IMG/VR virus record: IMGVR_UViG_3300045988_182799
Source of the DNA: a virus
Strand: one strand, 5' to 3'
Length of the DNA: 64,000 nt
Shown: piece after piece, positions 3,572 through 56,485 of the stretch
How positions within the stretch are numbered: position 1 is the first letter of the stretch
Layout of the letters: the number at the start of each line of letters is the position of its first letter
Made by a program: the position numbers and the translations under genes
Notes under the pieces: model-generated
Database searches by the model: none
Told to the model about the DNA's origin: nothing
What the model saw: only the letters and a program-made list of their open reading frames with translations

Positions 3572-3599
3572 AGTATATGCGGTTCGCACGATTCGGCAA
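3572..3599 (-). promoter_or_regulatory. sigma70-type promoter of the conserved-spacer family; likely drives the tRNA array
   Basis: Minus strand reads TTGCCG-aatCGTGCGAACCGca-TATACT, with a 16-nt spacer carrying the family core. It lies directly upstream of tRNA-Thr(UGU). Confidence 0.45.
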
Positions 3600-3621
3600 T
3601 ACAGATTATTTGAAGCACATT

Positions 3622-4308
3622 CTATATTTTGCGAATCTGCAAGTCACTGACATCTGCAATGTCTCGGTTTTCTTTCGTGACATCCTTTACCGCGCGTTTC
3701 TTTGACCAGAGAACACTCAGGACGCGATTGCGAAGGTTGTCGTCCTCGATAGTGGATGTCACTTTTACGATTTCTGACTCGCTCAAGTAGACTGTTCCAC
3801 CCTGCTGAATCATGGTCGGATACCCGTTATCACTTCTCAGGACCTTTTTATCAAGGCTATCGTAGGCGTATATCGCGTCGATAAGAAGTTCGGCCGCGAT
3901 TCCGTCCAGCTGTTCTTCCGTGATACCCTGGAAGACGAGCCAGCGGCGCATGAACGAGTCATCCGGGATACTGTCACTGTAAAGAGAGAACAGAGGAGAT
4001 ACCAGTTTGTTGCTCGAATAGCGCTCATGCTCTTCATCGACATTCAGGTTGTCCTGCCAAAGCTTCAGCATCAAGCCGTCGCCGTAGTAGACGAACGTGT
4101 CGTGAAAGAACCCGGACGAGCACACCTTGATATGGTCGATGTTCGCAACTTCCTCACGGTGGCAGAGTACAAAGCGCGTGCCTTCACTCTTGCCGTAGGT
4201 CTCATCGTCCCACTTGACCGTGACCCGTTCCAGCACAAACCTGTCGTTGAGGAGCTTCAGAACTGCTTTGATGGGAAATACTCGCCAGTCCATCAGATGT
4301 TTCTCCAT
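3622..4308 (-). CDS. hypothetical protein (228 aa), last gene of the AAA/zinc-ribbon/nuclease operon
   Basis: Intact ORF overlapping the upstream gene by 16 nt. No recognised motif. Confidence 0.55.
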   Translation of the reverse strand: MEKHLMDWRVFPIKAVLKLLNDRFVLERVTVKWDDETYGKSEGTRFVLCHREEVANIDHIKVCSSGFFHDTFVYYGDGLMLKLWQDNLNVDEEHERYSSNKLVSPLFSLYSDSIPDDSFMRRWLVFQGITEEQLDGIAAELLIDAIYAYDSLDKKVLRSDNGYPTMIQQGGTVYLSESEIVKVTSTIEDDNLRNRVLSVLWSKKRAVKDVTKENRDIADVSDLQIRKI

Positions 4309-4736
4309 TCCTTTGCTATCGGGTCGTACTCGGCCACTTCTTTTTTCGTAACCTTACCGTCCTTTTTATACAGCGTGACGCGCTGGATATAGTTGGCGGC
4401 ATTGGTATCAAGTCGGCGCATGGCTTCGGCAGAAGAGCTCGTCGTAGTGAGACTACGATAAGTCCCGCCGGAGCCCATGACGTCAGGCTCATAGTACCCA
4501 GTCTCGTAGTAGACTGCTATATCCTGTTCGTTAGGAGAAGCGGCATCCAGGATGACCTTGGAGCTTTCCTTGTTGCTACCCGCATAGGAGTTGCGGATGA
4601 TGCGAGCACCACGGTCATTCCCCTGCTGTTCATAGGCTTCGGCAATGAACTCAACGTAGGTCTTGAACTTCTGCTCGTCGCCGTCTCGATGTGCTTCAAT
4701 GAGCTTTCCGAGTGTAACTACGCCAACCACATTCAT
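4293..4736 (-). CDS. hypothetical protein (147 aa)
   Basis: Intact ORF in the operon. No recognised motif. Confidence 0.55.
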   Translation of the reverse strand: MNVVGVVTLGKLIEAHRDGDEQKFKTYVEFIAEAYEQQGNDRGARIIRNSYAGSNKESSKVILDAASPNEQDIAVYYETGYYEPDVMGSGGTYRSLTTTSSSAEAMRRLDTNAANYIQRVTLYKKDGKVTKKEVAEYDPIAKEWRNI

Positions 4737-4812
4737 TGCTTTTACTCCTCTCTTGAACTGTCTACATTATACCATTTTTGGAGTTCCGACTCGTACTGTG
4801 TAGACCAATGAT

Positions 4813-5487
4813 TCATAGATTCTTAACAAACTTACGCGTTTTTACAGGAATGAACCTGAAATGTCCAGTCTTATCTTGTTCGACTCTCCACTTCCACATG
4901 TGTCCCTGCATCCGTTCAGAATACAGCATCTGCTCGGTCGGTAAAAGCAGCCCTATGCCGTAGTATTTCGTAAGAGGTCGGCCTTTTTCGTGGTTTTCAG
5001 CAGCACGAGGAAAGGGGCGTTTTTCCTGCTTTAATTTGTATCCCGCATCGAGCAGTTCTGTGGCATAGAGCGCTGCATTTACTCGATGAAATACATATAG
5101 CATTTGGGTGCTTGAGAAGTAATAGAAGATACAGTTGGCGTTTTTATAAAGCCACCCATCTGAGTGATGGAGCGTTGACTCATTGGTGACAGGATTGCAG
5201 TTGATGACATTACCATTTTCATCAAATAGATAGGAGTCAACGGCCTGTTCCAGGAAGATGTTGCCGGTAGTGTATGTATCTGTTTTAGCATCGAGCGTTA
5301 CCGTGCGGCCATCTTTGCGATGAATCAGGAAGTCAATATCCTGTTCTTGATACGTTTTGATGCTTCTCACATCTTCGTAGCTCTCAAAGCTCAACCTTCC
5401 CAATTCGCAGCTCTTTTTTACGTAGTCAATTGCCACCTGTTCTCCGAGTTTTCCGACCGCAAGCTGGTCTTTCATGTTATAAGCCAA
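4813..5487 (-). CDS. PD-(D/E)xK-fold nuclease-like protein (YraN/Hjc-like N-terminal domain)
   Basis: N-terminus GKLGEQVAIDYV...QDIDFLIHRKDGRTVTLDAKTD matches the GxxGE...(E/D)IDLI...(D/E)xK pattern of the YraN/restriction-endonuclease-like fold. The C-terminal 120 aa are uncharacterised. Confidence 0.55.
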   Translation of the reverse strand: MAYNMKDQLAVGKLGEQVAIDYVKKSCELGRLSFESYEDVRSIKTYQEQDIDFLIHRKDGRTVTLDAKTDTYTTGNIFLEQAVDSYLFDENGNVINCNPVTNESTLHHSDGWLYKNANCIFYYFSSTQMLYVFHRVNAALYATELLDAGYKLKQEKRPFPRAAENHEKGRPLTKYYGIGLLLPTEQMLYSERMQGHMWKWRVEQDKTGHFRFIPVKTRKFVKNL

Positions 5488-5493
5488 GAAGTA

Positions 5494-6234
5494 TCACCTC
5501 CGCACTTTGCGGCAGGCGGGGCACTTAGGACCATACTTGCATACGGTAAAGAGCAACGGCGTCCATTCTTCGTCCTTGCCATAGCCGCAATCGGGACATA
5601 CCAAAGCAATGCGTTCACCGCTTCCGGCGGTCAGTTCATCGGGCCGAAACTTATTGGCGGTCGGATGCCACATAGCTGCAATCTGAGGGTATCCAACGCT
5701 GATGATAGGCTTCGTCGTGCATTTGCGAATTCGCTTCATCCGGTTGTGAGAAGCATTCAACCTGGCGCATTGCGGGCAGCCCGTATGATTCACGCCGCTG
5801 CCGCAAGCGAAAGCCAGGAGCGGATGCCACTCTCCGTTTTGACCATAGCCGCAGGTCTTGCAGACAAGATAGACATGCAGACCGCTGCCGGATGTGATTT
5901 GGTCAGGCTGGATGGTATTTAGCGTAGGATGCCACTGTTCGCCAATTTCAGGATGAACTGTAGCTACATCATTCACACCTTTGACCACGATTCGTCCAGC
6001 ACAAACCGGACAGCCGCCTTTTGTACGACAGACAGAAGAAAGCACCGGCCGCCATTCACCGTTTTTTCCGTATCCACACCGTGGACAAATCAAGGCAATG
6101 CGACGGCCGCTTCCACACGTGATTTCATCAGGACCACAGTCATTGGCAGTCGGGTGCCACATGGAAGCAATCTCAGGATGTTCTTCCGCTACCGTGCCGC
6201 GAGGCTCATAGAGCTTAATCTCAAATTCACGCAT
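5494..6234 (-). CDS. protein made of three tandem zinc-ribbon repeats (WHPT.N...GSG...CxxCGYG.NGEW...GCPxC)
   Basis: Three roughly 80-aa repeats each carry the W-H-P-T-x-N, GSG, C-x2-C-GYG and C-P-x-C signatures, i.e. 12 Cys in four-Cys clusters. The start overlaps the AAA ATPase stop by 8 nt. Confidence 0.7.
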   Translation of the reverse strand: MREFEIKLYEPRGTVAEEHPEIASMWHPTANDCGPDEITCGSGRRIALICPRCGYGKNGEWRPVLSSVCRTKGGCPVCAGRIVVKGVNDVATVHPEIGEQWHPTLNTIQPDQITSGSGLHVYLVCKTCGYGQNGEWHPLLAFACGSGVNHTGCPQCARLNASHNRMKRIRKCTTKPIISVGYPQIAAMWHPTANKFRPDELTAGSGERIALVCPDCGYGKDEEWTPLLFTVCKYGPKCPACRKVRR

Positions 6235-7195: not shown

Positions 7196-7873
7196 TTATT
7201 TATTTGCAAAGTAGGTGTCTGTGTCAGCTCTCGCGGCTCTCGCCTCAATATCAGCTTCGTTCAGATACCGAACGCTTTTGAATGTGTAGTTGGTATCGCC
7301 CTTTGTGCGAACATAGATGCCGCGCTTTGCGTATGTCAGTCCAGGCGTCATATCGCTGTCAGCTGTAGTCAGCAGTTTGATAATCTGATGCTCACCTGCA
7401 TCATCAACCACGCAAAGACTCACATCCGCATTGCCGTCACATGGGTAATCTTCCGGCAGCTTCACTTCGTAATCCACCACTACGAGTTCCGGGTTTTCGA
7501 TGCAATCTCGCAGCTTATCAAGAGCTGATTCTTCAGTTCGCAGTACAGAAAGAGAATTACTGAGCGCAATGGTGTTGCTGATGTAATCTTCATTTTCTGT
7601 TTCGGTAGTGATTTTAGTGATGCGCATTTCAATGTCATGCCATCGCCCATCGGTCAAAGAGCCATTTGAAACTGTTCCCCAGTCGCCGAGAGCGATAAGG
7701 TTATTGTTCTCGCCTCGCACCGGTTCTGTTTCCATACTGGTTTGAGCTGGAAGGCCTAGCGTTTCGCTGCTTTCAGCCGTTGCCACAGGGAAATCGGCGG
7801 GCAGCGTGCTGACGGGATAGCAGGCAGTCAAGGCAACAGCAAGCGCCGGAATAATCAAAAGCAGCTTTCTCAT
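7196..7873 (-). CDS. lipoprotein (225 aa)
   Basis: Signal peptide MRKLLLIIPALAVALTAC with a lipobox Cys. ATGA overlap with the upstream HTH gene suggests translational coupling. Confidence 0.65.
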   Translation of the reverse strand: MRKLLLIIPALAVALTACYPVSTLPADFPVATAESSETLGLPAQTSMETEPVRGENNNLIALGDWGTVSNGSLTDGRWHDIEMRITKITTETENEDYISNTIALSNSLSVLRTEESALDKLRDCIENPELVVVDYEVKLPEDYPCDGNADVSLCVVDDAGEHQIIKLLTTADSDMTPGLTYAKRGIYVRTKGDTNYTFKSVRYLNEADIEARAARADTDTYFANK

Positions 7874-8394
7874 TGTTCCTTCGCCGCCTTCTTTGTTTTC
7901 TTTCTTCCCCTTTTACGGTGGATTCCAGCTTTGTGCATGATGTCGTATCCACATGTGGTACAGAAACCATACTCCTTAGCAAGTGCCTGAATTGACTTCT
8001 GCGGGTTCTCTCTGACTGCTTGGATATACCGTTCCTCTCTTTTCAGGCGTTCTTTCTTTGCCTTTGTCATCACATCAGAATCCCGCTGGCAGGTATATTT
8101 CGGGTCTACCTGCTTGATGACGCTATAAATCGTTGCGCGGTTCATGTTGTATTCTTTCGCCAGCTCAACGGCCGTTACACCCTTGCTGTACTTGCGAGCG
8201 ATTTCTTTGTCTCGTTGTTTCTTCCATTTGTGGAAGTCCATAGAGCGTTCGTTACGACTCTCTTCACGAGATACTCTATAGCAGATATGGGTTGATACAT
8301 GATGCTTTGCGGCTGCGTCTTTGATAGACATACCACTCTTCAAGTCCTCGACAATGAGTCGGTTTCTTTCTGACATAGCTTCTTTGTCAATCAA
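7870..8394 (-). CDS. DNA-binding protein with three helix-turn-helix-like segments
   Basis: Repeated segments (SIKDAAAKHHVS..., VTAVELAKEYNMNRATIYSVIKQ, SIQALAKEYGFCTTCGY) resemble sigma70 region-4 / Mor-type HTH. First gene of the operon, behind promoter a. Confidence 0.6.
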   Translation of the reverse strand: MIDKEAMSERNRLIVEDLKSGMSIKDAAAKHHVSTHICYRVSREESRNERSMDFHKWKKQRDKEIARKYSKGVTAVELAKEYNMNRATIYSVIKQVDPKYTCQRDSDVMTKAKKERLKREERYIQAVRENPQKSIQALAKEYGFCTTCGYDIMHKAGIHRKRGRKKTKKAAKEQ

Positions 8395-8482
8395 TGTTGA
8401 GTCCTCCTTGCAAATAAAAAAGCAGGCTCTTAAAAGAACCTGCTTTCGTGGTCGTTAATACACTTTTTGGTCTACAATATTC

Positions 8483-8510
8483 AGTTTACTCAATTCGCAC
8501 AAACGCGCAA
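8483..8510 (-). promoter_or_regulatory. promoter a of the conserved-spacer family
   Basis: Minus strand TTGCGC-gttTGTGCGAATTGag-TAAACT. Confidence 0.5.
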
Positions 8511-8530: not shown

Positions 8531-9024
8531 TTATTTCCATTCCATATATGGAATATGTGCCAGCATAAGCAAACACACTTCAAGATTTGATTCGATGTAA
8601 CGAGCAATTGTATCGAATCGTTGATTCAGACTCAATGACTCAAAAGTGTAGCCGGATTCAGAGAGAATCATTTCCTCGCTGCTGGTATACATAACATTGA
8701 GCATCGCCGTCAATGCTTGCAGGATTTCCGTATCGCAGTCCTTCTTTGTGAAGAAGAAATATCGTGTTGAGTTCCCATCGGTGATGCCGATTTTGCCTTC
8801 ATAGCCATCAAAACTTGCAAGGTCGCCGAATAGGCTGCAAGCAATATAGCCAAGCTTTTCTTCAACCGGCACAGTGACCCACAAAGGATAACGCTCGTTT
8901 GGCTGAAAATCAGCCTTGCCACAGTTATACTCCCACTCAATGAAAGCACGAATACTGATAACTTCTCCGTACGGCGTAATGAATTTGACGTTTTCCAATT
9001 TACTCACCTCGCTTGTGCGCCACA
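8531..9024 (-). CDS. hypothetical protein; probable start at internal ATG ~9024 (possibly leaderless)
   Basis: The track ORF 8531-9175 overlaps the upstream gene by 74 nt, and its first 50 codons run through promoter b. An ATG lies ~7 nt downstream of the TACAAT -10 with no SD, consistent with a leaderless mRNA. Confidence 0.45.
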
Positions 9025-9030
9025 TGATTT

Positions 9031-9058
9031 TATTGTATTCAATTCGCAATGAAAAGCA
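9031..9058 (-). promoter_or_regulatory. promoter b of the conserved-spacer family
   Basis: Minus strand TTGCTT-ttcATTGCGAATTGaa-TACAAT. Confidence 0.5.
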
Positions 9059-9101
9059 AAAAGAGGGGCCGCCTGGCGGCAGCCCCTCGAATGCAGTGCG
9101 A

Positions 9102-11069: not shown

Positions 11070-11401
11070 CAGTAGCCCTCCTCATCGGAAATCTCATCTG
11101 CCGTCAGGTCTTCGTTGAAGTCCACGGTCAAATCAGCAACCGGCGCGTCCAGCTTTTTAAGGCCGAACGACTCATAGAAGCCATCAGGAATCTCGGCCGC
11201 ATCACCCCAGTTGAAGTAGCCACTGTTGAGTCGCAGCGTCTTTTTGCCTTCTTCGGTATCCAGATAAGACTTTACGGCGTTGCGTACTTGCGTGAGAACG
11301 TCATACGTTTTTTCAGAGTCATACTCAAACTGCAACATGGTCGTCTCGGTGCTGAATGGGCCTATGATTTCGTTTGCTGCGATAGTAAAAATTTTAGTCA
11401 T
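11069..11401 (-). CDS. small highly acidic protein (110 aa)
   Basis: Rich in Asp/Glu and ends ...DEISDEEGY. Its stop overlaps the downstream gene start. Sits behind promoter c. Confidence 0.55.
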   Translation of the reverse strand: MTKIFTIAANEIIGPFSTETTMLQFEYDSEKTYDVLTQVRNAVKSYLDTEEGKKTLRLNSGYFNWGDAAEIPDGFYESFGLKKLDAPVADLTVDFNEDLTADEISDEEGY

Positions 11402-11530
11402 GGTAAATACACTCCTTTGTTTTGACGCAAAAAGAGCGGGCCTCCCGCGTGGGAAGTCCGCTCTTCAAGCGAAATTGTGAATACGAAGGGCAAGTCGCCT
11501 TTTCGATTATGTTATCTATCGTACACTTTT

Positions 11531-11558
11531 ATCTTACGCAATTCGCATATTTTGACAA
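11531..11558 (-). promoter_or_regulatory. promoter c of the conserved-spacer family
   Basis: Minus strand TTGTCA-aaaTATGCGAATTGcg-TAAGAT. Confidence 0.5.
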
Positions 11559-12888: not shown

Positions 12889-13017
12889 TGGAAATTTCTC
12901 CTTTCAAATAAAAAGAGCGGGCCTACCCCGGAATGGGATAAGTCCGCTCTTAAAACAGATTGTGAACGATAGAAAATCGTAACATCTTTATGTGTTTGGT
13001 ATCTATCGTACAATCAA

Positions 13018-13046
13018 TATTGTAGTCAATTCGAAAGGAATGGCAA
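13018..13046 (-). promoter_or_regulatory. promoter d of the conserved-spacer family
   Basis: Minus strand TTGCCA-ttcCTTTCGAATTGac-TACAAT. Confidence 0.5.
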
Positions 13047-16944: not shown

Positions 16945-17745
16945 TTAATAGATGTCGTCATAGCTGCCTCCGATTCCGGCCCAAAGAGCTTCATCACTCA
17001 AGTCGTTGCGAGGGCACTTGATAATGCCCGCTTCTCTTAAAATTTGTCTTGCTTCCTTTGGCGTTAAGCCGTATTGCTTGGCGAGATTCGATAGAGACTG
17101 ATTTGGGATAGCTCTGGCTTGTGTAATCAATCGCCTTTTCTTTTCTGTCCAATCGATTGCTAAGCTCTTGTTTTTTGGAGCTGAGAGAGCGGTTCTTTCA
17201 AGGTCTTTTTCGAGGTCTTTTTGGTATTTTTTTGCGGCCGCCTGAATGCCGCTGACCGTCATTCCCCATTTATCAGCAATCTTTTTATAAGACATGCCAC
17301 TGATGTAGTCTTCATATATTTGTTTGTTTCTGGCGTGCTTTTCCTGAACATCTTTCTGGCGATAGAGGCGCGTCTTCGCCAAACCTTCACGCTCTTTTTG
17401 ATACTTTTTCACGATTGACCGAACGCAGCTACTGGTAACGCCCCATTTCTCCGCTATTTTGATGCAAGACGCACCACTTATAAACTCTTCATAAATTTGC
17501 TTGTTTCTGGTATGTTTTGCCTGTGCATTTTTCTGCCAGTCAAGGCGTGTCTTCGTTAAACCATATTTGGGGTCAGAACGTAGAATTTCGACAATTCTAT
17601 AGCAAGAAAGGCTATATTTGTCCGCCAACTCCAAGACACATACACCATCCATATAATCTCTGTAAATGGCGTCATTGCGTTCTTTCAAAGATTCATAGAC
17701 GCCGTTATTCTTTGCCTTCATCATAGTATCGCTGCTTCTCATCAC
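16945..17745 (-). CDS. multi-HTH DNA-binding protein (three tandem Mor/sigma70-region-4-like repeats plus a fourth HTH)
   Basis: Three repeats of RN.QIYE.(F/Y)ISG.S..KIA.KWG.T.S.(V/I)......KKYQK, followed by LSNLAKQYGLTPKEARQIL. Confidence 0.65.
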   Translation of the reverse strand: MMRSSDTMMKAKNNGVYESLKERNDAIYRDYMDGVCVLELADKYSLSCYRIVEILRSDPKYGLTKTRLDWQKNAQAKHTRNKQIYEEFISGASCIKIAEKWGVTSSCVRSIVKKYQKEREGLAKTRLYRQKDVQEKHARNKQIYEDYISGMSYKKIADKWGMTVSGIQAAAKKYQKDLEKDLERTALSAPKNKSLAIDWTEKKRRLITQARAIPNQSLSNLAKQYGLTPKEARQILREAGIIKCPRNDLSDEALWAGIGGSYDDIY

Positions 17746-20570: not shown

Positions 20571-20668
20571 GGTCTAAGTCCTCCAAAAACACATATTGAC
20601 GCAAAAAGAATACCCCGGCAAACACTCAATGCGTTCCACCGGGGTACAATTATTTATCTTACAATATC

Positions 20669-20697
20669 AATTGTAGGCAATTCGCACAGATGGTCAA
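20669..20697 (-). promoter_or_regulatory. promoter e of the conserved-spacer family (helicase operon)
   Basis: Minus strand TTGACC-atcTGTGCGAATTGcc-TACAAT. Confidence 0.55.
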
Positions 20698-25214: not shown

Positions 25215-25402
25215 GTTCTCGCAGTGAGCGTTTTAGGTCCGCTCAAGACCCTATTCGTCTCTACCGAAGCAACGCTATCAGCGCTGTTCAGTATCTATTA
25301 GTATATGGTGGTCGCATATCGTGTCAACTGCATATCGCGGCCATGCAACAGAAAAAGGAGCCTCACCTGCTTCTTGCAGGCAAGACTCCTCATTCGTATG
25401 GT

Positions 25403-25777: not shown

Positions 25778-25805
25778 ATTGTATGCGGTTCGCATAAGGC
25801 GTCAA
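25778..25805 (-). promoter_or_regulatory. promoter f of the conserved-spacer family
   Basis: Minus strand TTGACG-cctTATGCGAACCGca-TACAAT. Confidence 0.5.
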
Positions 25806-26284: not shown

Positions 26285-26312
26285 ATTGTACGCAAATCGC
26301 ACGATACAGCAA
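26285..26312 (-). promoter_or_regulatory. promoter g of the conserved-spacer family
   Basis: Minus strand TTGCTG-tatCGTGCGATTTGcg-TACAAT. Confidence 0.5.
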
Positions 26313-31407: not shown

Positions 31408-31488
31408 GTAGTAGCCTCTTTCTGCATAGTAAAAAGAAAGAGCGGGCGAGCCGCTCTCCTCAAGACACTTATTTATCTTACGATTTTT

Positions 31489-31516
31489 ATTCTATGCAAT
31501 TCGCACAGACACGCAA
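31489..31516 (-). promoter_or_regulatory. promoter h of the conserved-spacer family
   Basis: Minus strand TTGCGT-gtcTGTGCGAATTGca-TAGAAT. Confidence 0.55.
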
Positions 31517-32145: not shown

Positions 32146-32178
32146 GTGCGCTTCTCCTTTACTTTAGTCTACCTACAA

Positions 32179-32206
32179 TGATACTCAATTCGAACGGATG
32201 AACAAG
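32179..32206 (-). promoter_or_regulatory. promoter i of the conserved-spacer family
   Basis: Minus strand TTGTTC-atcCGTTCGAATTGag-TATCAT. Confidence 0.5.
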
Positions 32207-36092: not shown

Positions 36093-36126
36093 GTCATTTT
36101 CCCTCCCAATATGTATCTGATTTTTA

Positions 36127-36154
36127 TTATCTGCAATTCGCACAATTCATCAAA
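36127..36154 (-). promoter_or_regulatory. promoter j of the conserved-spacer family
   Basis: Minus strand TTGATG-aatTGTGCGAATTGca-GATAAT. Confidence 0.55.
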
Positions 36155-43022: not shown

Positions 43023-43266
43023 ATACATACTCCTTTCGCTCATCACAACCAATGCCTGTCTTTTGTGCAGGCGCGAATACAAACAAAAAAGCTGCGGAAG
43101 CAAAAGCAACCACAGCCTTTTATATGAACCACCGGCCCAGGAAAAAGCCGATGGGGTGAATACAAGCGGAAAGCAAACATGTCAAAGTGAGAGGAAACCA
43201 CGTCGTACACACCGGCAGGAAGAGGTTAAGACCCGCCGGAACCCAATTCCGCTTGTACAATTCTAA

Positions 43267-43293
43267 TTCTACGCAATTCGCACAAATGCACAA
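43267..43293 (-). promoter_or_regulatory. promoter k of the conserved-spacer family (flotillin operon)
   Basis: Minus strand TTGTGC-attTGTGCGAATTGcg-TAGAAT. Confidence 0.55.
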
Positions 43294-44270: not shown

Positions 44271-44298
44271 ATTGTTGCCAATTCGCACGTTTTGGCAA
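44271..44298 (-). promoter_or_regulatory. promoter l of the conserved-spacer family
   Basis: Minus strand TTGCCA-aaaCGTGCGAATTGgc-AACAAT. Confidence 0.45.
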
Positions 44299-46337: not shown

Positions 46338-46529
46338 ATACAACCTCAATTCGTACAGATGGTTCCTAATTCGCATATAACAACCGACTGTTGTTATTAT
46401 AGCCTATCAAGTGGTGGGATGCAAGGGGTATGGAAGAATTTGCCGTTTGCAATCCCATTAGTTACTCTACAACTGTGGAAGACCTTGACAAAAGAAAGAG
46501 AGGAGCTTGTTTGGCTCCCCTCTTTTACT

Positions 46530-48239: not shown

Positions 48240-48315
48240 TCCTTTTCTATCTGTATTATATCAATCACGGTATCAACAACCAATGTTGGCGGCAAGAATG
48301 TTACAGATTCTTCAG

Positions 48316-48765: not shown

Positions 48766-48876
48766 GAATATGCCTCTTTCTGAGTATGATGCGTCTCTGT
48801 ATAGTTTATCGCCCTATGCACAACTCGTTTTCATTTTCCGCATGACGATGCCTGTATTTATGGCGCGTAGCGTGCT

Positions 48877-49683: not shown

Positions 49684-49827
49684 ACCAATACCCTCTTTTG
49701 ATTTTTAAGAAACAGAGATTTTTTCAGAGAAAATTTTCAAAATTGCGAAAGCGGCTTGTAGCAAAGATTTAGCAAGTATTAGCAAGTTCGTAGATAGTTT
49801 GTTCTGAACTGAAGCAAGTAACGGCTT

Positions 49828-51975
49828 TTATTGTTGCTGGTCCGCATTGACTACCTGCTCTGCGCATTTTGCAGCGGAGGCGGAAGTGAAATAACGCAGC
49901 GGGATGTTCTTGCTGCGGACAATGTCGATGATTTTGTAGAAAGCCTTATGGGAGAGGTAGTTGGTTTGCAGCCATACGATGTCCGCACCTTTGATTTGTT
50001 CAGTGCTCGGAACTCCATCCACGAATTTCACATCCGGCACCATCGGCCGTATTGCCTTCAGCCAGGAAGGATGTCCGCCAAAGACGATGTGCTTCTTGGT
50101 GGTGTGGTACGGGAACGCTACCTGCGTCTTGGTATCTTTCCTGGCGGCAGAGTCTGCGTCATTGGTCAGCGCAAACACCAGCTCACGAAGGTCGTTCAGT
50201 TCTTGCTTTTCTTTCTCGTGTTCTACAGAAGCCTTCTCTATGGCAGTAGTTAGTTCACTGATTGTCTTTTCGGCTTTATAGAGTCCCTGCTTATTCTTTT
50301 CATACTTATTCTTGAGCTTCTCAATCTCTGCTTCATACGCATCGCATTTGGCACGTAGAGCATCGCACTCATCTTTTGTGTCGTTGGGAAAATCGATGCG
50401 GCCTTTTAGGTTGGACAGTAGAGATATGTATGCGGCGTATACAGCTCTACCTTCTGGCGCTGTCACACCCAAATCGGCAAGTGTTGCTTCTATCGGGTCT
50501 GCGCTGGCTGTGTTACGTGGAACGAGGACTCCATCGGTATAGGTGTATACGGCGGCCGCCGGGGTCATACGCACGGGAGTCTTTGCGTCTGCACCTTCTT
50601 GTTGTACCAAGGACATCGTATTCCAGCAGATTGGCACAACACTACTATCGCTTGTTAGGTTGTCTTCCATCAGATGGAGCTTGGCTGTATTGGCATCAAT
50701 ATAGAAAGCGGTTTGACCTGTTGCATCCACGCATTGTTTGACTGCTCCTCCACACCACGGTAGTTGTGCCGCTGCGTGGGAGAGAAGCACACAGGATGGA
50801 TAGTAAAGCCACGGAAGATTATCGCCGTTATCTATCATGTAATAGAATGCGAAGCATACTGCATACGGGTCCATGACTTCAAACATCACCGCACGCTTTG
50901 CTACTGCTGACGAATATTTCTTTGCCCATGTTTCTTTCGTCCAATAGGCACATTCGGCACTATCATAAGCAAAGTCTCTTTCCAACTCGTTGAGCTTTTG
51001 GAGCTTGGTTTGCATTGCCTCTAACTTTGCAACGATAGTTTCTCCGCGTTCTGCAATAGAATGGAGCCCGATTGTCATTTCTGTTTTTGTACCGACTCCA
51101 GGCATATTATTTTTAGCAAGCGGCAGGGCTTTTGCTTTGACCATAGAATGCGTCTTTTGGGAAAAAGCATTTGCTTCATCGCTCACTTTATTAAGCTCGT
51201 CATCAAGGCGATGGATTTCATCCAGACATTTCTTCTCTTCCTTGACCCACTTGGAGCGGCAACAGAAATAACGACTTATGGCTCCCCTTACCTGTATGGC
51301 ATACATATTTACAGCATTATCGACCTTATCTTCTGGGAGCAAGCCAACAATGGCATCAAACACATTTCTGGACGGTACATTCTGATGCTGCTTACCCGCA
51401 ACGGTATAGCTATCAGTGACAGGATACTTGAGCGGAGGCTTCTCCGGGTTATTGATGCCAACACAGTCCTCGTTTCGATGCAGAATGATATAAACCATAC
51501 TGCGAATCACAGCTTCACTATAGCAAGGAGATACACAAGACGGTAGTTCGATAGATGCGAGCTGTTCCTCGTCTTTTGGCAACAAAGCGAGTGCTTCATC
51601 CATCTTGTGGTTCGCTCTGATGGCATCCAGCATCCAGATAGCAGCGGCGAGCGAGTAATTGAACTGTCGCTCGCCTATGTTGAACGGAGGAGTCATCACC
51701 ATATTCAGGCGGACCCATTCGTCCTCGTATCGCACCTCAAGGTCTTCCGGTATATATTCTTTGGCAATAGCTACTGCCATATCTCGTGTTTCGGCAATGG
51801 CTTCTACTCGCCTATCTATTGTTTTATTGTCAATGTCAAACTCAAAGGCAACGCTTGGGTCCTTCTCCATCTCGCCGCCGAATCCGGCTATATTTTTAAG
51901 TAGCGCTCGTTTGCATCGTTCTTTGAAGCTGCCGGTTGGCTTCTTGCTATTGCGTTTTGCCTTGCCTTTGCCCAT
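49828..51975 (-). CDS. large coiled-coil protein with the same C-terminal domain as 46530-48239
   Basis: Start at MGKGKAKRN (RBS AAAGGAGAA). Coiled coil AKCDAYEAEIEKLKNKYEKNKQGLYKAEKTISELTTAIEKASVEHEKEKQELNDLREL, then KKHIVFGGHPSWLKAIRPMVPDVKFVDG...ADIVWLQTNYLSHKAFYKII. Confidence 0.65.
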   Translation of the reverse strand: MGKGKAKRNSKKPTGSFKERCKRALLKNIAGFGGEMEKDPSVAFEFDIDNKTIDRRVEAIAETRDMAVAIAKEYIPEDLEVRYEDEWVRLNMVMTPPFNIGERQFNYSLAAAIWMLDAIRANHKMDEALALLPKDEEQLASIELPSCVSPCYSEAVIRSMVYIILHRNEDCVGINNPEKPPLKYPVTDSYTVAGKQHQNVPSRNVFDAIVGLLPEDKVDNAVNMYAIQVRGAISRYFCCRSKWVKEEKKCLDEIHRLDDELNKVSDEANAFSQKTHSMVKAKALPLAKNNMPGVGTKTEMTIGLHSIAERGETIVAKLEAMQTKLQKLNELERDFAYDSAECAYWTKETWAKKYSSAVAKRAVMFEVMDPYAVCFAFYYMIDNGDNLPWLYYPSCVLLSHAAAQLPWCGGAVKQCVDATGQTAFYIDANTAKLHLMEDNLTSDSSVVPICWNTMSLVQQEGADAKTPVRMTPAAAVYTYTDGVLVPRNTASADPIEATLADLGVTAPEGRAVYAAYISLLSNLKGRIDFPNDTKDECDALRAKCDAYEAEIEKLKNKYEKNKQGLYKAEKTISELTTAIEKASVEHEKEKQELNDLRELVFALTNDADSAARKDTKTQVAFPYHTTKKHIVFGGHPSWLKAIRPMVPDVKFVDGVPSTEQIKGADIVWLQTNYLSHKAFYKIIDIVRSKNIPLRYFTSASAAKCAEQVVNADQQQ

Positions 51976-52020
51976 CGTGTTCTCCTTTGTCTGGGTTGCG
52001 CCAGATTTCTCTAATATAAC

Positions 52021-52049
52021 ATTATACGACATGTTGCGGTATTTATCAA
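52021..52049 (-). promoter_or_regulatory. canonical sigma70 promoter (TTGATA-17-TATAAT)
   Basis: Perfect -10 with a 17-nt spacer. Does not carry the family core. Confidence 0.55.
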
Positions 52050-52310
52050 TCGCTACACTTTTCCGTGTGCGGCAAGCTTCACATTTTCCCGGCGAGTTTT
52101 TGCTGATTCCGGCACTTTTTGCAGCGAGTTTTGTTCTGCGGCTCGGGATTCATGTGAGCACTGCGCTCTGCACCCATATAGAGCATCTCACTGTCTGTTT
52201 CTTGGCAGACTGTTCTGATGCGAGAGCTGGCATGGCTTGCCCGCCATGAAGCGTGTGCCGGTTGTACTGGACCATGCCCCCTTGCCGTGGTTCATCCAGC
52301 ACAAAGAAAA

Positions 52311-52370
52311 CTTACACGCCGTGCAACAGGATTCGCCTATAGCTTACACGCGTGTAACTATTCGTGTAAG
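52311..52370. promoter_or_regulatory. operator-like cluster: four TTACACG half-sites, two forming the perfect palindrome TTACACGCGTGTAA
   Basis: CTTACACG (52311), TTACACGCGTGTAA (52344-52357), CGTGTAAG (52363). Located in a 490-nt non-coding region. Confidence 0.4.
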
Positions 52371-52463
52371 TCACAGCATTATTATTCCCTTTGGTTTCCC
52401 TTCACAGCGCCACAAAGCTGCCTGCTACGAGGTTCTGAGCGTTTAGTCCGACATTCTTCCCGT

Positions 52464-52511
52464 ACAACAAGAAAAGCACGCCACAGAAGCCCGTAGGCCC
52501 CTATGACGTGC
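52464..52511 (-). terminator. intrinsic terminator after the phosphoesterase pair
   Basis: Minus strand GCACGTCATAGGGGCCTACGGGCTTCTGTGGCGTGC hairpin followed by TTTTCTTGTTG. Confidence 0.4.
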
Positions 52512-52521
52512 GTATCGTTAT

Positions 52522-53364
52522 TTAGAGATAGTTAGATGGCTTAATGACGGATACTCCGTATGGAGATGTATCAATGTCGAGGTATGTGCAGCCGGAGTTG
52601 GGTCTATCCATCCGAGTGATTTCTTTATGAGGGATGTGTCCAAAAATATAGAGCGTATCCCGATGACCGGTCAGCATTTCGTCTTTATCATAATCAAAGA
52701 CTCGACCGAACGGATTGTTGTGTGTCACTACGACTTGTTTGAATCGAGAGCCAGGCGGAGGTGTGATGTTGAGTTCCTGTGCCTGATTCTCGAAGATAAC
52801 TTCAAAGTTCTCTCTCGTCTTTTTCGTACCAGACAGGTACTCGTAGATGGTATGCTCTGCTTCATACGGTGTGCCACACATATTGTCGAGCAAGTATACG
52901 ACCATCTGCCAAAGCCCATCATTCTCCCACGCGAGAGTATAAGTGATGAAGAGCTTCTGCCACCCGGCGAATGTATGAGGTCTTGCGGCGAGAATCTTCT
53001 TTCTTTCCTCCATGCTGCATCTGAGCGTTTCGAGTTCTTCTTTTGTTCTGAAGATGTGCTCTCCTTGCTTGTAGTGTAGGAAGACCCAGGCTGCGAGCTT
53101 TCTGACGGTCGGAGACTGTGCGAGTGCTTTATAGTATCGAAGCATCTGCCTATGTTCGTATTCGTGGTTGCCAAGAACGAGATGGACTGTATCTGGATGT
53201 TCCGCAATGAAGTTGACGACCTTTGCGTTTTCCTTGCCACGGTCTACTACATCACCAACGAAGACGAGCTTGTCGGTTCCTTCATTCCATCCGGCGGCCA
53301 TGAGGGATTCGATGAGACCTTTGTAGTTCCCATGCACATCTCCTGCCACATAGATGTCGCTCAT
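52522..53364 (-). CDS. calcineurin-like metallophosphoesterase (PPP-type phosphatase fold)
   Basis: Motifs GDVHG, GDVVDRG, GNHE and a later HG/GH pair. The start overlaps the upstream gene (ATGA). Confidence 0.75.
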   Translation of the reverse strand: MSDIYVAGDVHGNYKGLIESLMAAGWNEGTDKLVFVGDVVDRGKENAKVVNFIAEHPDTVHLVLGNHEYEHRQMLRYYKALAQSPTVRKLAAWVFLHYKQGEHIFRTKEELETLRCSMEERKKILAARPHTFAGWQKLFITYTLAWENDGLWQMVVYLLDNMCGTPYEAEHTIYEYLSGTKKTRENFEVIFENQAQELNITPPPGSRFKQVVVTHNNPFGRVFDYDKDEMLTGHRDTLYIFGHIPHKEITRMDRPNSGCTYLDIDTSPYGVSVIKPSNYL

Positions 53365-54149
53365 TGGTTATCACCTTCTTTCCCAAAGTCGTCCGTGTTT
53401 ATTTCCGCAATCTGGTTGTACAGCACTCTGAGCTTGTACATCGGTTTATCGATGTCTTGGTGCATGTGGCCGCAACACCATTGTTTAAACTTCACCCGGC
53501 GGTAAATTTCATCAAGGTATACGCCAGTCGGGTCGTGAATCGGGCTGATGTCTCTGAAATAGATTGGCATGAGCATCTGTGGAAGCATGTGCGTCAGGAT
53601 GATGTCTACTTTATTCCCATGCTCATCCAATGCGTCAAGACCGTGCCACATCTCTTTCTGAGATGGGACTTCTTCCCTCCACCAAGTGACGCCTTCTGTA
53701 CGGTATGCTTTATCGATAGACTCTGCACCTCCCATACACCATACAGTTATACCATCAATCGTGTAGTATTCGCCGCGCATCAGGTGGATGACATTCGGTG
53801 CTTCCGGCAGGCGTTGAATCAAGCCGCCGTTCCACCGTTCAGTAGGCTGCTCTGCCCAGAAGGTGTGGTTATCGTGGTTACCATCAATGAAGAGGATATT
53901 GCAAGGAAAAGACTTCATCCAGTCGGTGTACATCTGGTACGCTCGCGCTGACTTGATACAGTGTTGCGGCATGTCCAGTGTCTTGAGGTCGTCCGCCGGA
54001 ATGCGGTCTGTTGGAAAGAACGGAAATCCGAAGTCTCCACAAACAACAATTACATCCTCCTTTGTGAGGTTGCGGTCAAGAAACCGTTTCGGATTGATTT
54101 TGGAAATCTCATCTGGTCCATGTGTATCGCCAAAAATATGAAGAAGCAT
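53361..54149 (-). CDS. second metallophosphoesterase
   Basis: Motifs GDTHG, GDFG, DGNHD and GHMH. Confidence 0.75.
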   Translation of the reverse strand: MLLHIFGDTHGPDEISKINPKRFLDRNLTKEDVIVVCGDFGFPFFPTDRIPADDLKTLDMPQHCIKSARAYQMYTDWMKSFPCNILFIDGNHDNHTFWAEQPTERWNGGLIQRLPEAPNVIHLMRGEYYTIDGITVWCMGGAESIDKAYRTEGVTWWREEVPSQKEMWHGLDALDEHGNKVDIILTHMLPQMLMPIYFRDISPIHDPTGVYLDEIYRRVKFKQWCCGHMHQDIDKPMYKLRVLYNQIAEINTDDFGKEGDNQ

Positions 54150-54208
54150 CCATCGTCATCTCCTTTCTGCTCTGGGTTGATTTTGTTCTGGATGAATTAT
54201 CGGGTGCC

Positions 54209-54967
54209 TCACAGCATCGCGAGCAGTTTCTCTGCTTCATGGTTTTCCTTGTAGGCCGCAATCGCCATATTCCGCCGGTCTTTCTCCTGCTCTTCTTCGG
54301 GATACCAGTCTTCTGTATAGTCGTCGCCCAGCAGCTTCTTTACGACTTCCTCGAACGGAATGCCTTTGCTGGGTTCGCCGTTTTCAGCGAGGTCTTTCTT
54401 TGTTTCCTCAAGGTTCGCGTCGATTTCAGCTTTGGCGTTCTCTATACCTTTAGGTTCGATACCAAAAAAGGTCATTTCCCACAACACGCGGGAAAGGCAC
54501 CACTCAAGGCCGTAGATATAGATACTGGACGGTGCCAGCTTCCAGCTGAGAATCTCTTCCCAGCTGCAAAATTCAAAAGCGTATTGAGTCGGCAGGTCCT
54601 GCTTCATTACGGCCGCCATGATGTCATCGGTGCTCATAAAGGTAAGCATCTCATCGCTGATGGCTTCAGCTTCAGATACTTTCGTGTGCTTCTCTTTCCA
54701 GGCACGGAGGTCACTGGCTTCGATGCAGACGGTGTCATCTCCCACGTCACCAAAGCCCTTGCAAACGAAGAGCAGTTTCTGCTCCGGCTCTACTTTCAGG
54801 GTGAGCGTCTTCATGCGCATGAATGCAGCATTGACCTCTTCCTTAGCATCTGCGAGCCGGTCACGCTCCTCGCCGCCACTGTGATACATAGCTGCAAACT
54901 CCGCAGCCAGCTTGTCTACGTCACAGTGCATGAATGCCTGATAGGTGTTCTCAAAGTTCGTGGTCAT
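54209..54967 (-). CDS. acidic hypothetical protein (252 aa)
   Basis: Intact ORF. Confidence 0.55.
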   Translation of the reverse strand: MTTNFENTYQAFMHCDVDKLAAEFAAMYHSGGEERDRLADAKEEVNAAFMRMKTLTLKVEPEQKLLFVCKGFGDVGDDTVCIEASDLRAWKEKHTKVSEAEAISDEMLTFMSTDDIMAAVMKQDLPTQYAFEFCSWEEILSWKLAPSSIYIYGLEWCLSRVLWEMTFFGIEPKGIENAKAEIDANLEETKKDLAENGEPSKGIPFEEVVKKLLGDDYTEDWYPEEEQEKDRRNMAIAAYKENHEAEKLLAML

Positions 54968-55072
54968 AATTGCCTTTCCGGCTGTTCACTTCAGCCCAAT
55001 TCTTGTGTATTCCAAAGTGCTGCTTTATAGTTCTTGATGAACTTATATCAGGCAACAGCTTCATCCCATCTC

Positions 55073-55306
55073 TTATTTCTTCGTTTTCTTCCCGGCTTCT
55101 TTCAAAATAGTCACCTTCGTCTTCGGATGCAGCTTATCCTTTACAGCTTCATATTCTTCTGTCGTCCCCTCAAAGGTGATTTTACTACCTCCTGCTACCA
55201 TCGCTTTTTGCATATCAAGAGAGTCAATGCACTGTGCGGATTCCGTATGAACTCCAATGATAGTTCCTGTTCCGCGTCCTCTCGGACTTATCACTTCATA
55301 TACCAT
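55073..55306 (-). CDS. small hypothetical protein (77 aa)
   Basis: RBS AGGAGG. Its 5' region overlaps a GCTACGC repeat. Confidence 0.5.
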   Translation of the reverse strand: MVYEVISPRGRGTGTIIGVHTESAQCIDSLDMQKAMVAGGSKITFEGTTEEYEAVKDKLHPKTKVTILKEAGKKTKK

Positions 55307-55490
55307 GTTTGGCTACGCCTCCTAAAAAGAAAAAGAACGACGGCTACGCAACCAGCGACCAGTTTCATGGTGGCAGCTACGCTTCCGTCGTTCATAAACT
55401 CCTTTGCTATTGGCAGCGATGCTTTCATCCTCTGCCTACGGTTCGTTCCACGCGCACCTACGGTTTCACCCGCCGGGCTACGCTTTAATC
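55307..55490. repeat. intergenic cluster of six GCTACGC / CCTACGG heptamers
   Basis: Copies at ~55312, 55343, 55376, 55435, 55457 and 55477, spaced 31, 33, 59, 22 and 20 nt (about multiples of a helical turn). Confidence 0.6.
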
Positions 55491-55673
55491 ATCGTCGTCT
55501 TTGAGTGCGTTATAGGCAAAGAACCCATAAAGGCCAAAGAAGTACAGCGTAATAACCCAAGTGGGAAGGTATTCAGTCACGCCGGTCAGCGTGAAGACAA
55601 CAGCCATAATACAAGCCGTTACCAGAAACTGCGAATCGACGTACAGCACCAATCCGATGTTAAAGCCTTTCAT
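55485..55673 (-). CDS. small hydrophobic protein (62 aa) with DDDD C-terminus
   Basis: Two TM-like segments ending ...NALKDDDD. Confidence 0.45.
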   Translation of the reverse strand: MKGFNIGLVLYVDSQFLVTACIMAVVFTLTGVTEYLPTWVITLYFFGLYGFFAYNALKDDDD

Positions 55674-55675
55674 CT

Positions 55676-56341
55676 TTATGCCTCCTCAAAGTAGTCTCTC
55701 AGCGAGTCAGAGACTTTAACTCGTACAGTATCATCCCACGAGTCGTATTTGTTCTCCGGATACGAAACATCTTCAACCGAACTCAGCTTCCAGGTAGAAA
55801 CAGGTTCACCATCTTCGATGCGAACAATGGTAGGAGCGCCGATACGCTTCTCTCCAATTTCGTACTTGTTCTTATCCTTATCGCTTATCGTGTAATCTGC
55901 CAGGTAGTCTTGCAGCCAATTGAGAAGTTCATCATACCCTTCCCCTGCTGCTTTTGTCATCACAGGAGCACCAGTATTCTCGTCGTATGCGTAGATGTCG
56001 CGGTACTCATCGATTTGGCAGTAGTAAACGGTCTGGTTCTTTTCTTTGGCAATACTGGTAAGTTCAGGAATCAGGTTGCGGCAGTAAGGGCAGCGAGGAT
56101 ACGCAAAGATAACGATGCCATCTTTGATTTCTCTCGCCTGTGTCGCAGTCACTTCAACATAGGTGTTATTCCAGGGAACACCTACGGTTTGATAGGTATA
56201 GTCAGCAGCTACGCTCGGCTTCTGGTTGTTGTATCCAGAGTAGCTTCTTGCAACTACGGCTCCATCACTACTGGCTACGCTAATTGCAGCAGCCATTGCC
56301 AGCGATGCAACTACGTAAGGAACAATGAATTTCTTAGTCAT
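55676..56341 (-). CDS. secreted thioredoxin-fold protein with CxxC (CPYC)
   Basis: Signal peptide MTKKFIVPYVVASLAMAAAISVAS and IVIFAYPRCPYCRNL. Its 5' coding region contains several GCTACGC-type heptamers. Confidence 0.6.
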   Translation of the reverse strand: MTKKFIVPYVVASLAMAAAISVASSDGAVVARSYSGYNNQKPSVAADYTYQTVGVPWNNTYVEVTATQAREIKDGIVIFAYPRCPYCRNLIPELTSIAKEKNQTVYYCQIDEYRDIYAYDENTGAPVMTKAAGEGYDELLNWLQDYLADYTISDKDKNKYEIGEKRIGAPTIVRIEDGEPVSTWKLSSVEDVSYPENKYDSWDDTVRVKVSDSLRDYFEEA

Positions 56342-56354
56342 TTCTCAAAACCTC

Positions 56355-56425
56355 AAGTGCCTACGGTCAGGAGCTACGCTTTGAGGTTTGTAGTTCTTCG
56401 GCTACGCTTCGGCAGCTACGCTCCT
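56355..56425. repeat. 5'-UTR cluster of four GCTACGC/CCTACGG heptamers
   Basis: Copies at ~56360, 56373, 56401 and 56415, between the promoter at 56457-56485 and the start of the thioredoxin-like gene. Confidence 0.55.
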
Positions 56426-56456
56426 TCCGTGTTTCGTCTTCTTTATTTTCATCGCC

Positions 56457-56485
56457 ATTATACCACGAATTCGTAATTGTCTCAA
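56457..56485 (-). promoter_or_regulatory. sigma70 promoter with family-like spacer (TTGAGA-caattACGAATTCGtgg-TATAAT)
   Basis: Perfect -10 and a 17-nt spacer containing ACGAATTCG. Confidence 0.5.

Follow-up and report, generated by a model that had tools for sequence, protein, structure and literature searches.

A TGCGA box embedded in dispersed promoters of a Hodor-like megaplasmid family

Promoters and genes of the 64-kb window

We have analysed a stretch of 64,000 nt (hereafter the window, positions being numbered from its first letter), which is filed as viral under IMG/VR record IMGVR_UViG_3300045988_182799 and which matches the Hodor conjugative megaplasmids by its described traits (see below). 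Nearly all of its genes lie on the minus strand according to codon-usage scoring, and promoters that share a box in the spacer between the -35 and -10 hexamers are dispersed among them. A scan with TTG-N7-core-N2-nAnnnT recovered, to within 1 nt, all thirteen minus-strand sites of the original prediction, each of the form TTGnnn-N4-(10-mer)-N2-TAnnnT with the 16-nt spacer that had been claimed; the site unit is 28 bp. The 10-mer GTGCGAATTG has 12 matches in the window with at most one mismatch, on the minus strand every time, and is exact at 6 sites. With at most two mismatches the full pattern likewise gives 12 minus-strand matches and none on the plus strand, the number expected from 100 shuffles being 0.02; the single plus-strand match of a TTG-N7-core scan carries 3 mismatches, which is the level of chance. 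A fourteenth, degenerate member (25300-25327, minus strand) retains ATGCGA, and the spacer measures 16 bp at all 14 sites (Table 1).

All 14 sites fall within the non-coding ~18% of the window and are co-oriented with the genes, the downstream gene or first tRNA lying 6-254 nt away. The motif heads the tRNA array and many cassettes, in partial agreement with the earlier proposal, which had named the tRNA array and most accessory operons. A bias of the coding sequence had been considered as the trivial explanation of the motif: inside genes, the core has one 1-mismatch match (at 5401) and no enrichment. Outside the 28-bp unit the flanks of the thirteen sites have no sequence in common, and thus the sites are not recent copies of each other. 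A strong intrinsic terminator ends a few bases before many of them. The class is confined to 3.5-44.3 kb, which corresponds to the regulatory/cassette region and the tRNA array; no TGCGA-class promoter was found in the conjugation (VirB4/VirD4) region, be it in the window (44300-64000) or at locus L144. At 25403-26312 (minus strand) a whole cassette consisting of terminator, motif promoter and a gene for ~106-110 aa is duplicated in tandem; the two proteins are 51% identical and the regions of their ribosome-binding sites (RBS) near-identical, and the two promoters have diverged except for TTG, TGCGA, G19 (numbered as below) and the -10.

Two side observations concern genes next to these promoters. 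The called ATG of gene 8531-9025 is only 6 nt past the -10 of promoter 9059 (window 9025-9032), and the mRNA is either leaderless or has its true start at a downstream TTG with a GAGGTG Shine-Dalgarno sequence. The sole plus-strand open reading frame with a positive coding score (32303-32770; 155 aa, no family match) diverges from promoter 32205 and is kept at 79-86% in three relatives.

Table 1. Motif promoters, leaders and genes of the window, in order of position (HTH, helix-turn-helix; T1, commonest leader form, described below).
Feature	Position	Strand	Sequence	Context
Seven tRNA genes (Thr-TGT, Asn, Met, Asp, Gly, Thr-CGT, Ala)	135..3526	-		downstream of promoter 3599
Motif promoter	3572..3599	-	core GTGCGAACCG	45 nt upstream of first tRNA
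3xHTH protein	7870..8394	-		168-174 aa, three modules, Mor-like/CD3324-family
Leader terminator	8416..8475	-		stem 8447-8418 and T-run, between promoter 8510 and 3xHTH gene
Motif promoter	8483..8510	-	TTGCGCgtttGTGCGAATTGagTAAACT	promoter of tandem-HTH operon
Motif promoter	9032..9059	-	core TTGCGAATTG	after terminator 9088-9063; precedes ~160-aa gene 8531-9025
T1 leader	11429..11524	-	5' box GTACGATAGATAACA; second box TTCACAATTT	5' box, hairpin, second box, terminator, RBS of 11069-11401 and 9636-11069
Motif promoter	11531..11558	-	core ATGCGAATTG	
MBL-fold gene	11731-12888	-		
T1 leader	12910..13011	-	5' box GTACGATAGATACCA; second box TTCACAATCT	5' box, closing stem, second box, terminator, RBS of MBL-fold gene 11731-12888
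Motif promoter	13019..13046	-	core TTTCGAATTG	
Sortase	13286-14059			
4xHTH protein	16945..17745	-		266 aa, four modules; Mor 2.7e-16, CD3324_fam 66.9 bits
UvrD-like helicase	17742-20570	-		
Short leader	20603..20662	-	box GTAAGATAAATAATT	box, hairpin, T-run; before UvrD-like helicase 17742-20570
Motif promoter	20670..20697	-	TTGACCatctGTGCGAATTGccTACAAT	after terminator 20772-20744
Degenerate motif promoter	25300..25327	-	TTGACAcgatATGCGACCACcaTATACT	after terminator 25391-25355; leader terminator 25214-25188 downstream
Motif promoter	25778..25805	-	core ATGCGAACCG	after terminator 25903-25870; precedes paralogue 25403-25735
Motif promoter	26285..26312	-	core GTGCGATTTG	precedes gene 25917-26237
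Short leader	31431..31481	-	box GTAAGATAAATAAG	box, hairpin and T-run (intrinsic terminator); before gene 30745-31407 (220 aa)
Motif promoter	31489..31516	-	TTGCGTgtctGTGCGAATTGcaTAGAAT	
Motif promoter	32178..32205	-	core GTTCGAATTG	precedes gene 31534-32145
Motif promoter	36126..36153	-	TTGATGaattGTGCGAATTGcaGATAAT	after terminator 36202-36175; precedes VirB4-like ATPase fragment 34815-36092
SPFH/flotillin gene	41331-43109	-		
Structured leader, ~150 nt	between promoter 43266..43293 and SPFH/flotillin gene 41331-43109	-		
Motif promoter	43266..43293	-	TTGTGCatttGTGCGAATTGcgTAGAAT	after terminator 43352-43321
Motif promoter	44271..44298	-	TTGCCAaaacGTGCGAATTGgcAACAAT	after terminator 44329-44304
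VirB4-like ATPase	59880-62552			

Promoters of other kinds are also present. The site at 56457-56485 (minus strand), which had been counted as a relative of the thirteen, reads TTGAGA-17-TGgTATAAT: it is near-consensus, has a 17-nt spacer, an extended -10 and a perfect 10-bp palindrome (ACGAATTCGT) in the spacer, lacks TGCGA, and is a different promoter, distinct from the TGCGA class. It resembles a classical dimeric operator. Two consensus promoters without the TGCGA box (52021-52049 and 43528-43556, minus strand; TTGAT(A/T)-17-TATAAT) have ACATGTnGTATAAT in common, with ACATGTnG directly upstream of the -10, and may constitute a second promoter class.

As regards the element itself, megablast against INPHARED and PLSDB gave no match to the window, and a phage origin was rejected on these grounds and because matches in PHROGs are generic only. 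Besides the genes of Table 1, the window encodes a Y-family polymerase and metallophosphoesterases, and its G+C content is ~48%. The exact VirB4-like protein was found on contigs in 404 metagenome-collection blocks, some of these contigs exceeding 200 kb, and contigs with the same protein carry VirD4 and an M23 peptidase just outside the window. The nearest cultured relatives by VirB4 are Subdoligranulum and Vescimonas plasmids (37-39% identity). The Hodor conjugative megaplasmids, reported in a preprint of February 2026, come from the human gut, measure 211-389 kb with a G+C content of ~45-47% and carry sortases, VirB4 and VirD4; reads related to them were detected in 9,349 gut or wastewater metagenomic samples (PMC12934698). 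The element matches them in size, G+C content, gut origin, sortases, type IV secretion system (T4SS) and filing as a huge phage, and its 'viral' label in IMG/VR is explained by the fact that Hodor plasmids are filed as huge phages in viral databases (PMC12934698). Rep_3, ParA/ParB/ParM and MOBH-like relaxase genes, which belong to the Hodor module, do not occur in the 64-kb window, and the words 'promoter', 'tRNA' and 'sigma' occur nowhere in the Hodor paper (PMC12934698).

Further observations were made on individual genes. The tRNA array occupies 3.4 kb, and small open reading frames lie in its gaps, which reach 1.1 kb. The gene at 34815-36092 (minus strand), which has its own motif promoter, encodes a second, truncated VirB4-like ATPase that covers only the C-terminal part of the CD1110 family, and the gene at 38784-39380 (minus strand) encodes a small P-loop protein with a TrwB/HerA-like motif; both are distant from the main T4SS genes. 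A 477-aa protein (9636-11069, minus strand) is 74-90% identical in 33 loci of the family, far above its neighbours, and matches nothing in Pfam, NCBIfam or the PDB, its only match being PHROG 12834, of unknown function. Its gene adjoins the HTH module and lies behind a T1 leader.

Conserved bases of the promoter and their distribution

An exact-pattern scan of IMG/VR yielded at least 119 related loci on contigs of 27-389 kb, which were examined as ~10-kb windows around motif sites (~1 Mb in all) and which have patches 72-92% identical to the window. With at most two core mismatches, at least 156 sites were found on the coding strand of this DNA versus 0 on the opposite strand, and background noise shows only from 3-4 mismatches. 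Because this first sample of relatives had been selected through the core, a second, core-blind sample was taken with TAnnnT-N6-TGTACGATAGATA, i.e. with the -10 and a leader box, the core being ignored. In the resulting 151 distinct promoters of relatives (first T of the -35 TTG = 0), TTG at positions 0-2 is conserved at 97-99%, position 3 is C in 77% (the -35 thus being TTGC), position 9 is Y in 97%, position 10 is G, T or A and never C, positions 11-15 are TGCGA at 97-99% per base, position 16 is A in 77% and position 19 is G in 84%, while positions 17-18 (the 'TT' of GAATTG) are essentially free. The consensus is TTG(C), then Y-D-TGCGA-R..G in fixed register, then TAnAAT. TGCGA is as strongly conserved as the -35 TTG, and the invariant element is TGCGA(A), not the 10-mer: among the ten spacer positions that had been described as near-invariant, Y9, TGCGA, A16 and G19 stand in the core-blind data, whereas positions 17-18 do not, and to this extent the claim was overstated. 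Positions 4, 5, 7, 8, 17 and 18 and the flanks vary freely, which argues for selection on specific bases rather than recent copying.

The register is fixed, with 139 canonical sites versus 6 elsewhere, the latter number being that of the antisense background. When the first base of the -10 is set to -12, GTGCGAA occupies -24 to -18 and TGCGA -23 to -19. GTGCGAA is also the second arm of a direct repeat with a 10-bp period, formed by positions -1 to 6 (c-TTGCCAA) and 9 to 16 (y-GTGCGAA). The -35 falls in the upstream repeat TTGCCAA, which accounts for the odd C of TTGC; non-motif promoters of the plasmid have a canonical TTGA, a 17-bp spacer and TATAAT, and the 77% of TTGC against this TTGA indicates that the upstream repeat does not serve merely as a sigma-A -35. 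Downstream of the -10 lies an A-rich discriminator, with T at the 7th and R at the 8th nt after the -10 in 92 and 115 of 120 sites, respectively. This T-R step is the usual signature of a start site, and the predicted start is ~8 nt past the -10.

Several other readings of the site were rejected. A palindromic operator (TGCGAaTTGCA) is suggested by a dyad in the window, the right half of which is not conserved in the core-blind data. An extended -10 does not apply, as the TG is one base too far upstream in the aligned sites; an overlapping second promoter (TTGCnT and ATAAAT) is not kept in relatives; the spacing of the core-blind consensus is wrong for -35/-10 elements of extracytoplasmic function (ECF) type; and the sequences do not fit Spo0A, Rex or CcpA sites.

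Beyond the family, the strict pattern has 20 matches in 185,579 species genomes, against ~17 expected by chance by our own calculation, and a regulon of host genomes was rejected since matches in species representatives stay at this level. Only one gut 'Clostridiales' metagenome-assembled genome (HRGM_Genome_2451, a GTDB species representative) has several matches, and they lie on contigs 94-99% identical to family loci: its family contigs measure 224 kb and 37 kb (loci L129, L141 and L143). Either the plasmid was binned into that genome or this is a hint at the host. The motif is absent from Vescimonas plasmid pMM35_02 (all 142 kb) and from 42 kb of the Subdoligranulum plasmid, and searches of the literature for the motif string returned primer matches only. 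Being at chance level in species genomes and absent from distant relatives, the signature is that of the plasmid family and not of a host chromosome; and because other promoters of the plasmid do without it, and genomes contain it at chance level, the box is not generally needed by the host polymerase.

Thus, the proposal of one class defined beyond what sigma-70/sigma-A recognition needs is upheld by a strand-specific, register-fixed and family-wide element. It is well supported that this is a real regulatory signature, consisting of sigma-A-type promoters with a base-specific requirement at -23 to -19 and, in half of them, leader termination. A first explanation requires no separate factor: TGCGAA would be a strong Z-element through which the beta' zipper of the host polymerase, or sigma, determines how strong the promoter is, and the sites would be kept alike by selection for strength together with common descent. 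TGCGA overlaps the Z-element (-22 to -18) and the zipper contact near -21 (PMC3173786), and a fixed register would be expected. The box is like the Z-element in its location in the spacer and unlike it in being GC-rich and invariant; the Z-element has a loose, AT-rich consensus (AACCT, AACAT) and a modest effect (Yuzenkova et al. 2011, PMC3173786), and single changes in it alter activity less than 2-fold, against 97-99% invariance here. Since, in addition, other promoters of the same plasmid lack the box and the strict pattern is not enriched in any sequenced genome scanned, we consider this explanation improbable.

Even less probable is that the sites answer to a dedicated plasmid sigma, as had also been proposed, or to a host global regulator of the Spo0A type acting on the tandem 7-mers. 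The hexamers and their spacing are those of sigma-A, and searches of the window and of the 119 listed loci (~1 Mb) detected no sigma-70-family gene, with queries that do recover the sigma genes annotated on the Vescimonas plasmid. As for Spo0A, 0A boxes are arranged head to tail, and the tandem 7-mers with their 3-bp gap resemble this layout. CGAA is common to the box and to TGTCGAA (PMC3485338), and host Spo0A sites occur in phi29-family early promoters (PMC2731898). Nevertheless, in the 0A 7-mer TGNCGAA the contact bases are G2, C4 and G5 (PMC3485338), whereas the cores here are GTGCGAA, ATGCGAA or TTGCGAA: an invariant T stands in place of G2, the box lacks one base of the 7-mer, and TGTCGAA does not occur among the 151 cores. 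Host genomes, moreover, give no regulon signal.

Leader terminators, tandem-HTH proteins and probable joint control of the class

Among the relatives listed, 61 of 130 non-redundant motif promoters (~47%) are followed by an intrinsic terminator, with a T-tract that starts 50-125 nt past the -10 and ahead of the first RBS, and 80 of the 130 have a terminator within 200 nt upstream. Six of the 14 promoters of the window have such a leader terminator (8510, 11558, 13046, 20697, 25327 and 31516). The original prediction was that the element could switch its whole accessory load at once; with about half of the promoters running into a leader terminator before the first gene, initiation alone cannot achieve this. 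A -10-like TAnnnT at about +2 to +7 accompanies 41 of 59 terminator-coupled promoters versus 2 of 75 without a terminator.

The commonest form of leader, T1, is ~95 nt long and is made up of four parts (5' box, hairpin, second box and terminator), after which comes the RBS. The 5' box, TGTACGATAGATA(A/C)CA, is invariant; the hairpin is variable and closed by GUACGA/UCGUAC, a closing stem of at least 6 contiguous pairs being present in 114 of 150 leaders versus 10 of 150 shuffled controls; the internal box before the terminator is TTCACAATTT. A terminator ends 142 of 151 T1 leaders, and compensatory changes are seen in 8 of its 11 pairs. Up to 6 copies of T1 occur in ~10 kb, relatives with T1 include L151, L186, L010 and L048, and nearly all T1 boxes are preceded by a promoter that keeps (G/T)TGCGA. 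No Rfam family matches the leaders, and T1 is a candidate for a new family of cis-regulatory RNA. In the short leaders, which precede the helicase gene (20603-20662), the 220-aa gene (31431-31481) and the 3xHTH operon (8416-8475), a GTAAGATAAATAA-type box is directly followed by the terminator, an arrangement kept in relatives with differing hairpin sequences; the orthologous helicase gene of relatives has the same short-leader architecture upstream. In the tandem-HTH operon of four diverged lineages a terminator stands just before the RBS, constant in position and not in sequence. Such leaders may act as conditional attenuators or, by analogy with canT and conAn2, as a cis-acting 'pass'.

This architecture is reminiscent of the lambdoid Q system, in which the DNA element bound by Q precedes a sigma-dependent pause site (PMC5001585, PMC9191641). 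In both cases the promoter contains a DNA element, the first ~10 bases transcribed include a -10-like sequence, and a terminator is nearby (PMC5001585, PMC9191641), here a TAnnnT at about +2 to +7 and a terminator 45-100 nt downstream. The promoters could then be constitutive, and a protein bound to the repeats would engage the paused polymerase and make it resistant to termination. Yet about half of the motif promoters have the same core without pause-like box or leader terminator; the 16-nt T1 box forms pairs with a strand downstream of it and so looks like an RNA element, not merely a pause signal; no Q-family protein was detected in the window, antitermQ reaching 17.1 bits over one HTH against a cut-off of 26 bits; and lambdoid phages have one such promoter each, not dozens. 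Loading of a Q-like antiterminator is therefore unlikely in our opinion, if somewhat less so than a Z-element effect.

Pfam and NCBIfam scans of ~70 window proteins singled out the 3xHTH and 4xHTH proteins of Table 1 as the only clear DNA binders. Their earlier nomination as binders gains from this and from the finding that a tandem-HTH protein sits behind a motif promoter in each lineage examined; they are the only candidate box readers found. The Mor match is limited to the HTH part (profile positions ~58-107), and sigma-70 region-4/ECF models match the HTH modules below threshold. The 4xHTH gene and the helicase gene are predicted to share one transcript that starts at promoter 20697. In 57 of the 119 loci listed, the 3xHTH orthologue has a motif promoter 113-143 nt ahead of it, and more tandem-HTH paralogues follow this orthologue in relatives. 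The AlphaFold model of the 3xHTH protein (mean predicted local distance difference test 84) consists of three three-helix modules joined by flexible linkers. Foldseek gave only weak matches (E>0.1), the best being monomeric multi-HTH binders of extended asymmetric sites (Cbp1, Tc3/Mos1, paired domain), and sequence and fold searches of the PDB were not informative beyond 'tandem HTH'. A tblastn search of PLSDB and INPHARED returned no 3xHTH homologue, and a deep homologue search returned close relatives only; in the collections searched, both the box and the 3xHTH proteins are restricted to this family of plasmids. Within the protein, conservation is highest in the putative recognition helices of modules 2 and 3.

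One factor probably controls the motif promoters jointly. We tentatively favour host sigma-A promoters in which the site of a plasmid factor is embedded and to which control of leader termination is added; from the sequence we infer a protein reader, its identity, the sign of its control and a conditional bypass of the terminators. The housekeeping sigma-A polymerase of the host would use the promoters through the -35 TTG, the 16-bp spacer and the -10 TAnAAT. A plasmid-encoded sequence-specific protein would read TTGCCAA, which doubles as the -35, and GTGCGAA one helical turn away, and successive HTH modules could occupy successive major grooves. We lean towards a repressor that silences the cassettes of a ~200-390 kb plasmid and autoregulates its own operon, since the hexamers look competent alone, since autoregulated global repressors are the rule on conjugative plasmids, and since a plasmid of 350 kb has to keep the burden on its host low. 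At about half of the promoters there would be a second tier, in which the transcript starts with a conserved box and meets a terminator before the RBS, so that expression of these cassettes would also need read-through (antitermination).

Four points weigh against this scheme. The box lies where the beta' zipper of the polymerase touches the spacer (PMC3173786), so that the polymerase itself could read it. Identity among the 3xHTH orthologues is as low as 31-38% for a box that does not change, and no co-variation was seen, which is awkward for these proteins as readers of the box. A different conserved regulator may be encoded elsewhere on the plasmid, the relatives having been viewed only ~10 kb around motif sites. 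Finally, the fixed register, the non-consensus -35 and the Mor-like or sigma-4-like modules would suit an activator or a sigma-4 substitute equally well. Under such positive control the plasmid factor would bind both repeats and recruit or re-specify the host polymerase, in the manner of T4 MotA/AsiA or Mu Mor/C, and the promoters would be off until the factor is made. This is consistent with an absolutely fixed register, with a conserved non-consensus TTGC and a suboptimal 16-bp spacer on a plasmid that also has canonical promoters, with HTH modules that match Mor and, below threshold, sigma-70 region 4/ECF, and with an asymmetric site built of direct repeats. On the other hand, a promoter with TTG, 16-bp spacing and a -10 close to consensus should have basal activity with sigma-A alone; the regulator's operon needs the same promoter and terminator, which poses a bootstrap problem; and the scans of window proteins detected no MotA, AsiA or full-length Mor homologue. 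We therefore regard positive control as a minority possibility, less probable than the sigma-A promoters with an embedded factor site favoured here.

A bolder conjecture, to which we give a similarly modest chance, is that phased repeats, transcript-start box and leader terminator form one new device, in which a sigma-4-like tandem-HTH protein docked on the promoter DNA would hand the polymerase a terminator 'pass', or else that TGCGA is a strict basal element read by the polymerase core. If true, the device would be a multi-copy Q-like or otherwise promoter-coupled antitermination regulon, with dozens of uses per megaplasmid. We know of nothing published on the control of the ~350-kb Hodor cargo. 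The motif provides a map of Hodor transcription units (more than 150 promoters, with predicted starts and terminators) and points to a single control input. If promoter box and leader terminator act together, they would offer compact insulation and co-regulation of dozens of horizontally exchanged cassettes, as well as a host-portable promoter/terminator toolkit for gut Bacillota.

Comparison with known systems

In the KorA/KorB/TrbA system of IncP-1 plasmids, the ArdK/StbA/KorA system of IncW plasmid R388 and the C1 system of P1, an element-encoded binder has sites in many dispersed promoters, usually including its own; genes are thereby silenced in concert and expressed in a burst once the element has been transferred. 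The sites of P1 C1 and ArdK are asymmetric or direct repeats. The present family resembles these systems in having the same site in many promoters of one replicon (14 in the window, at least 156 in relatives), and ArdK on direct-repeat DNA (PDB 7bca) is among the weak fold matches of the 3xHTH model; homology to Kor, ArdK or C1 was not detected at the sequence level. It differs from them in that the site is found at one spacer register in over 150 promoters, also serves as the -35 and is terminator-coupled in half of the cases, and in that the candidate binder has three or four HTH modules per chain. Unlike the dyad operator of KorA/KorB, the site has an invariant left half (TGCGA) and a free right half, and is a direct repeat.

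In T4 middle promoters the MotA box replaces the -35 at about -30, and sigma is appropriated by AsiA and MotA. The likeness is that dozens of promoters have an asymmetric, element-specific box a constant number of bases before an ordinary -10; unlike in T4, the TTG -35 is retained at its proper spacing and the box is centred near -21, and the Pfam scans of window proteins detected no MotA/AsiA homologue. Two further types of site were rejected. The Mor/C activator site is a dyad located upstream of or overlapping the -35 region of promoters without a -35, whereas the site described here lies in the spacer, has no dyad and comes with a TTG -35. MerR-type promoters have a 19-20 bp spacer with a palindrome; the spacer is 16 bp throughout here, and no MerR-family protein was detected in the window. 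The many promoters of this plasmid, half of them without pause box and terminator, and the lack of a Q-family protein in the window also set it apart from lambdoid Q.

With respect to the leaders, canT of Tn916 (PMC11658703) and conAn2 of pLS20 (PMC8191782) are cis-acting antiterminator RNAs of Gram-positive conjugative elements. T1 is a candidate analogue, as a structured RNA right after an element promoter, with terminators insulating element genes. A plasmid has many T1 leaders, each with a terminator of its own ~90 nt after the start, whereas an element has a single canT or conAn, which stands first in its conjugation operon and acts processively. To have the site of one regulator in many promoters of a mobile element is thus a well-known kind of organisation; what appear to be unreported are the spacer box at a single register, the direct repeat that absorbs the -35, the scale of more than 150 promoters, the tight coupling of the promoters to a new leader/terminator family, and the setting in a gut megaplasmid that has only lately been recognised and is very prevalent.

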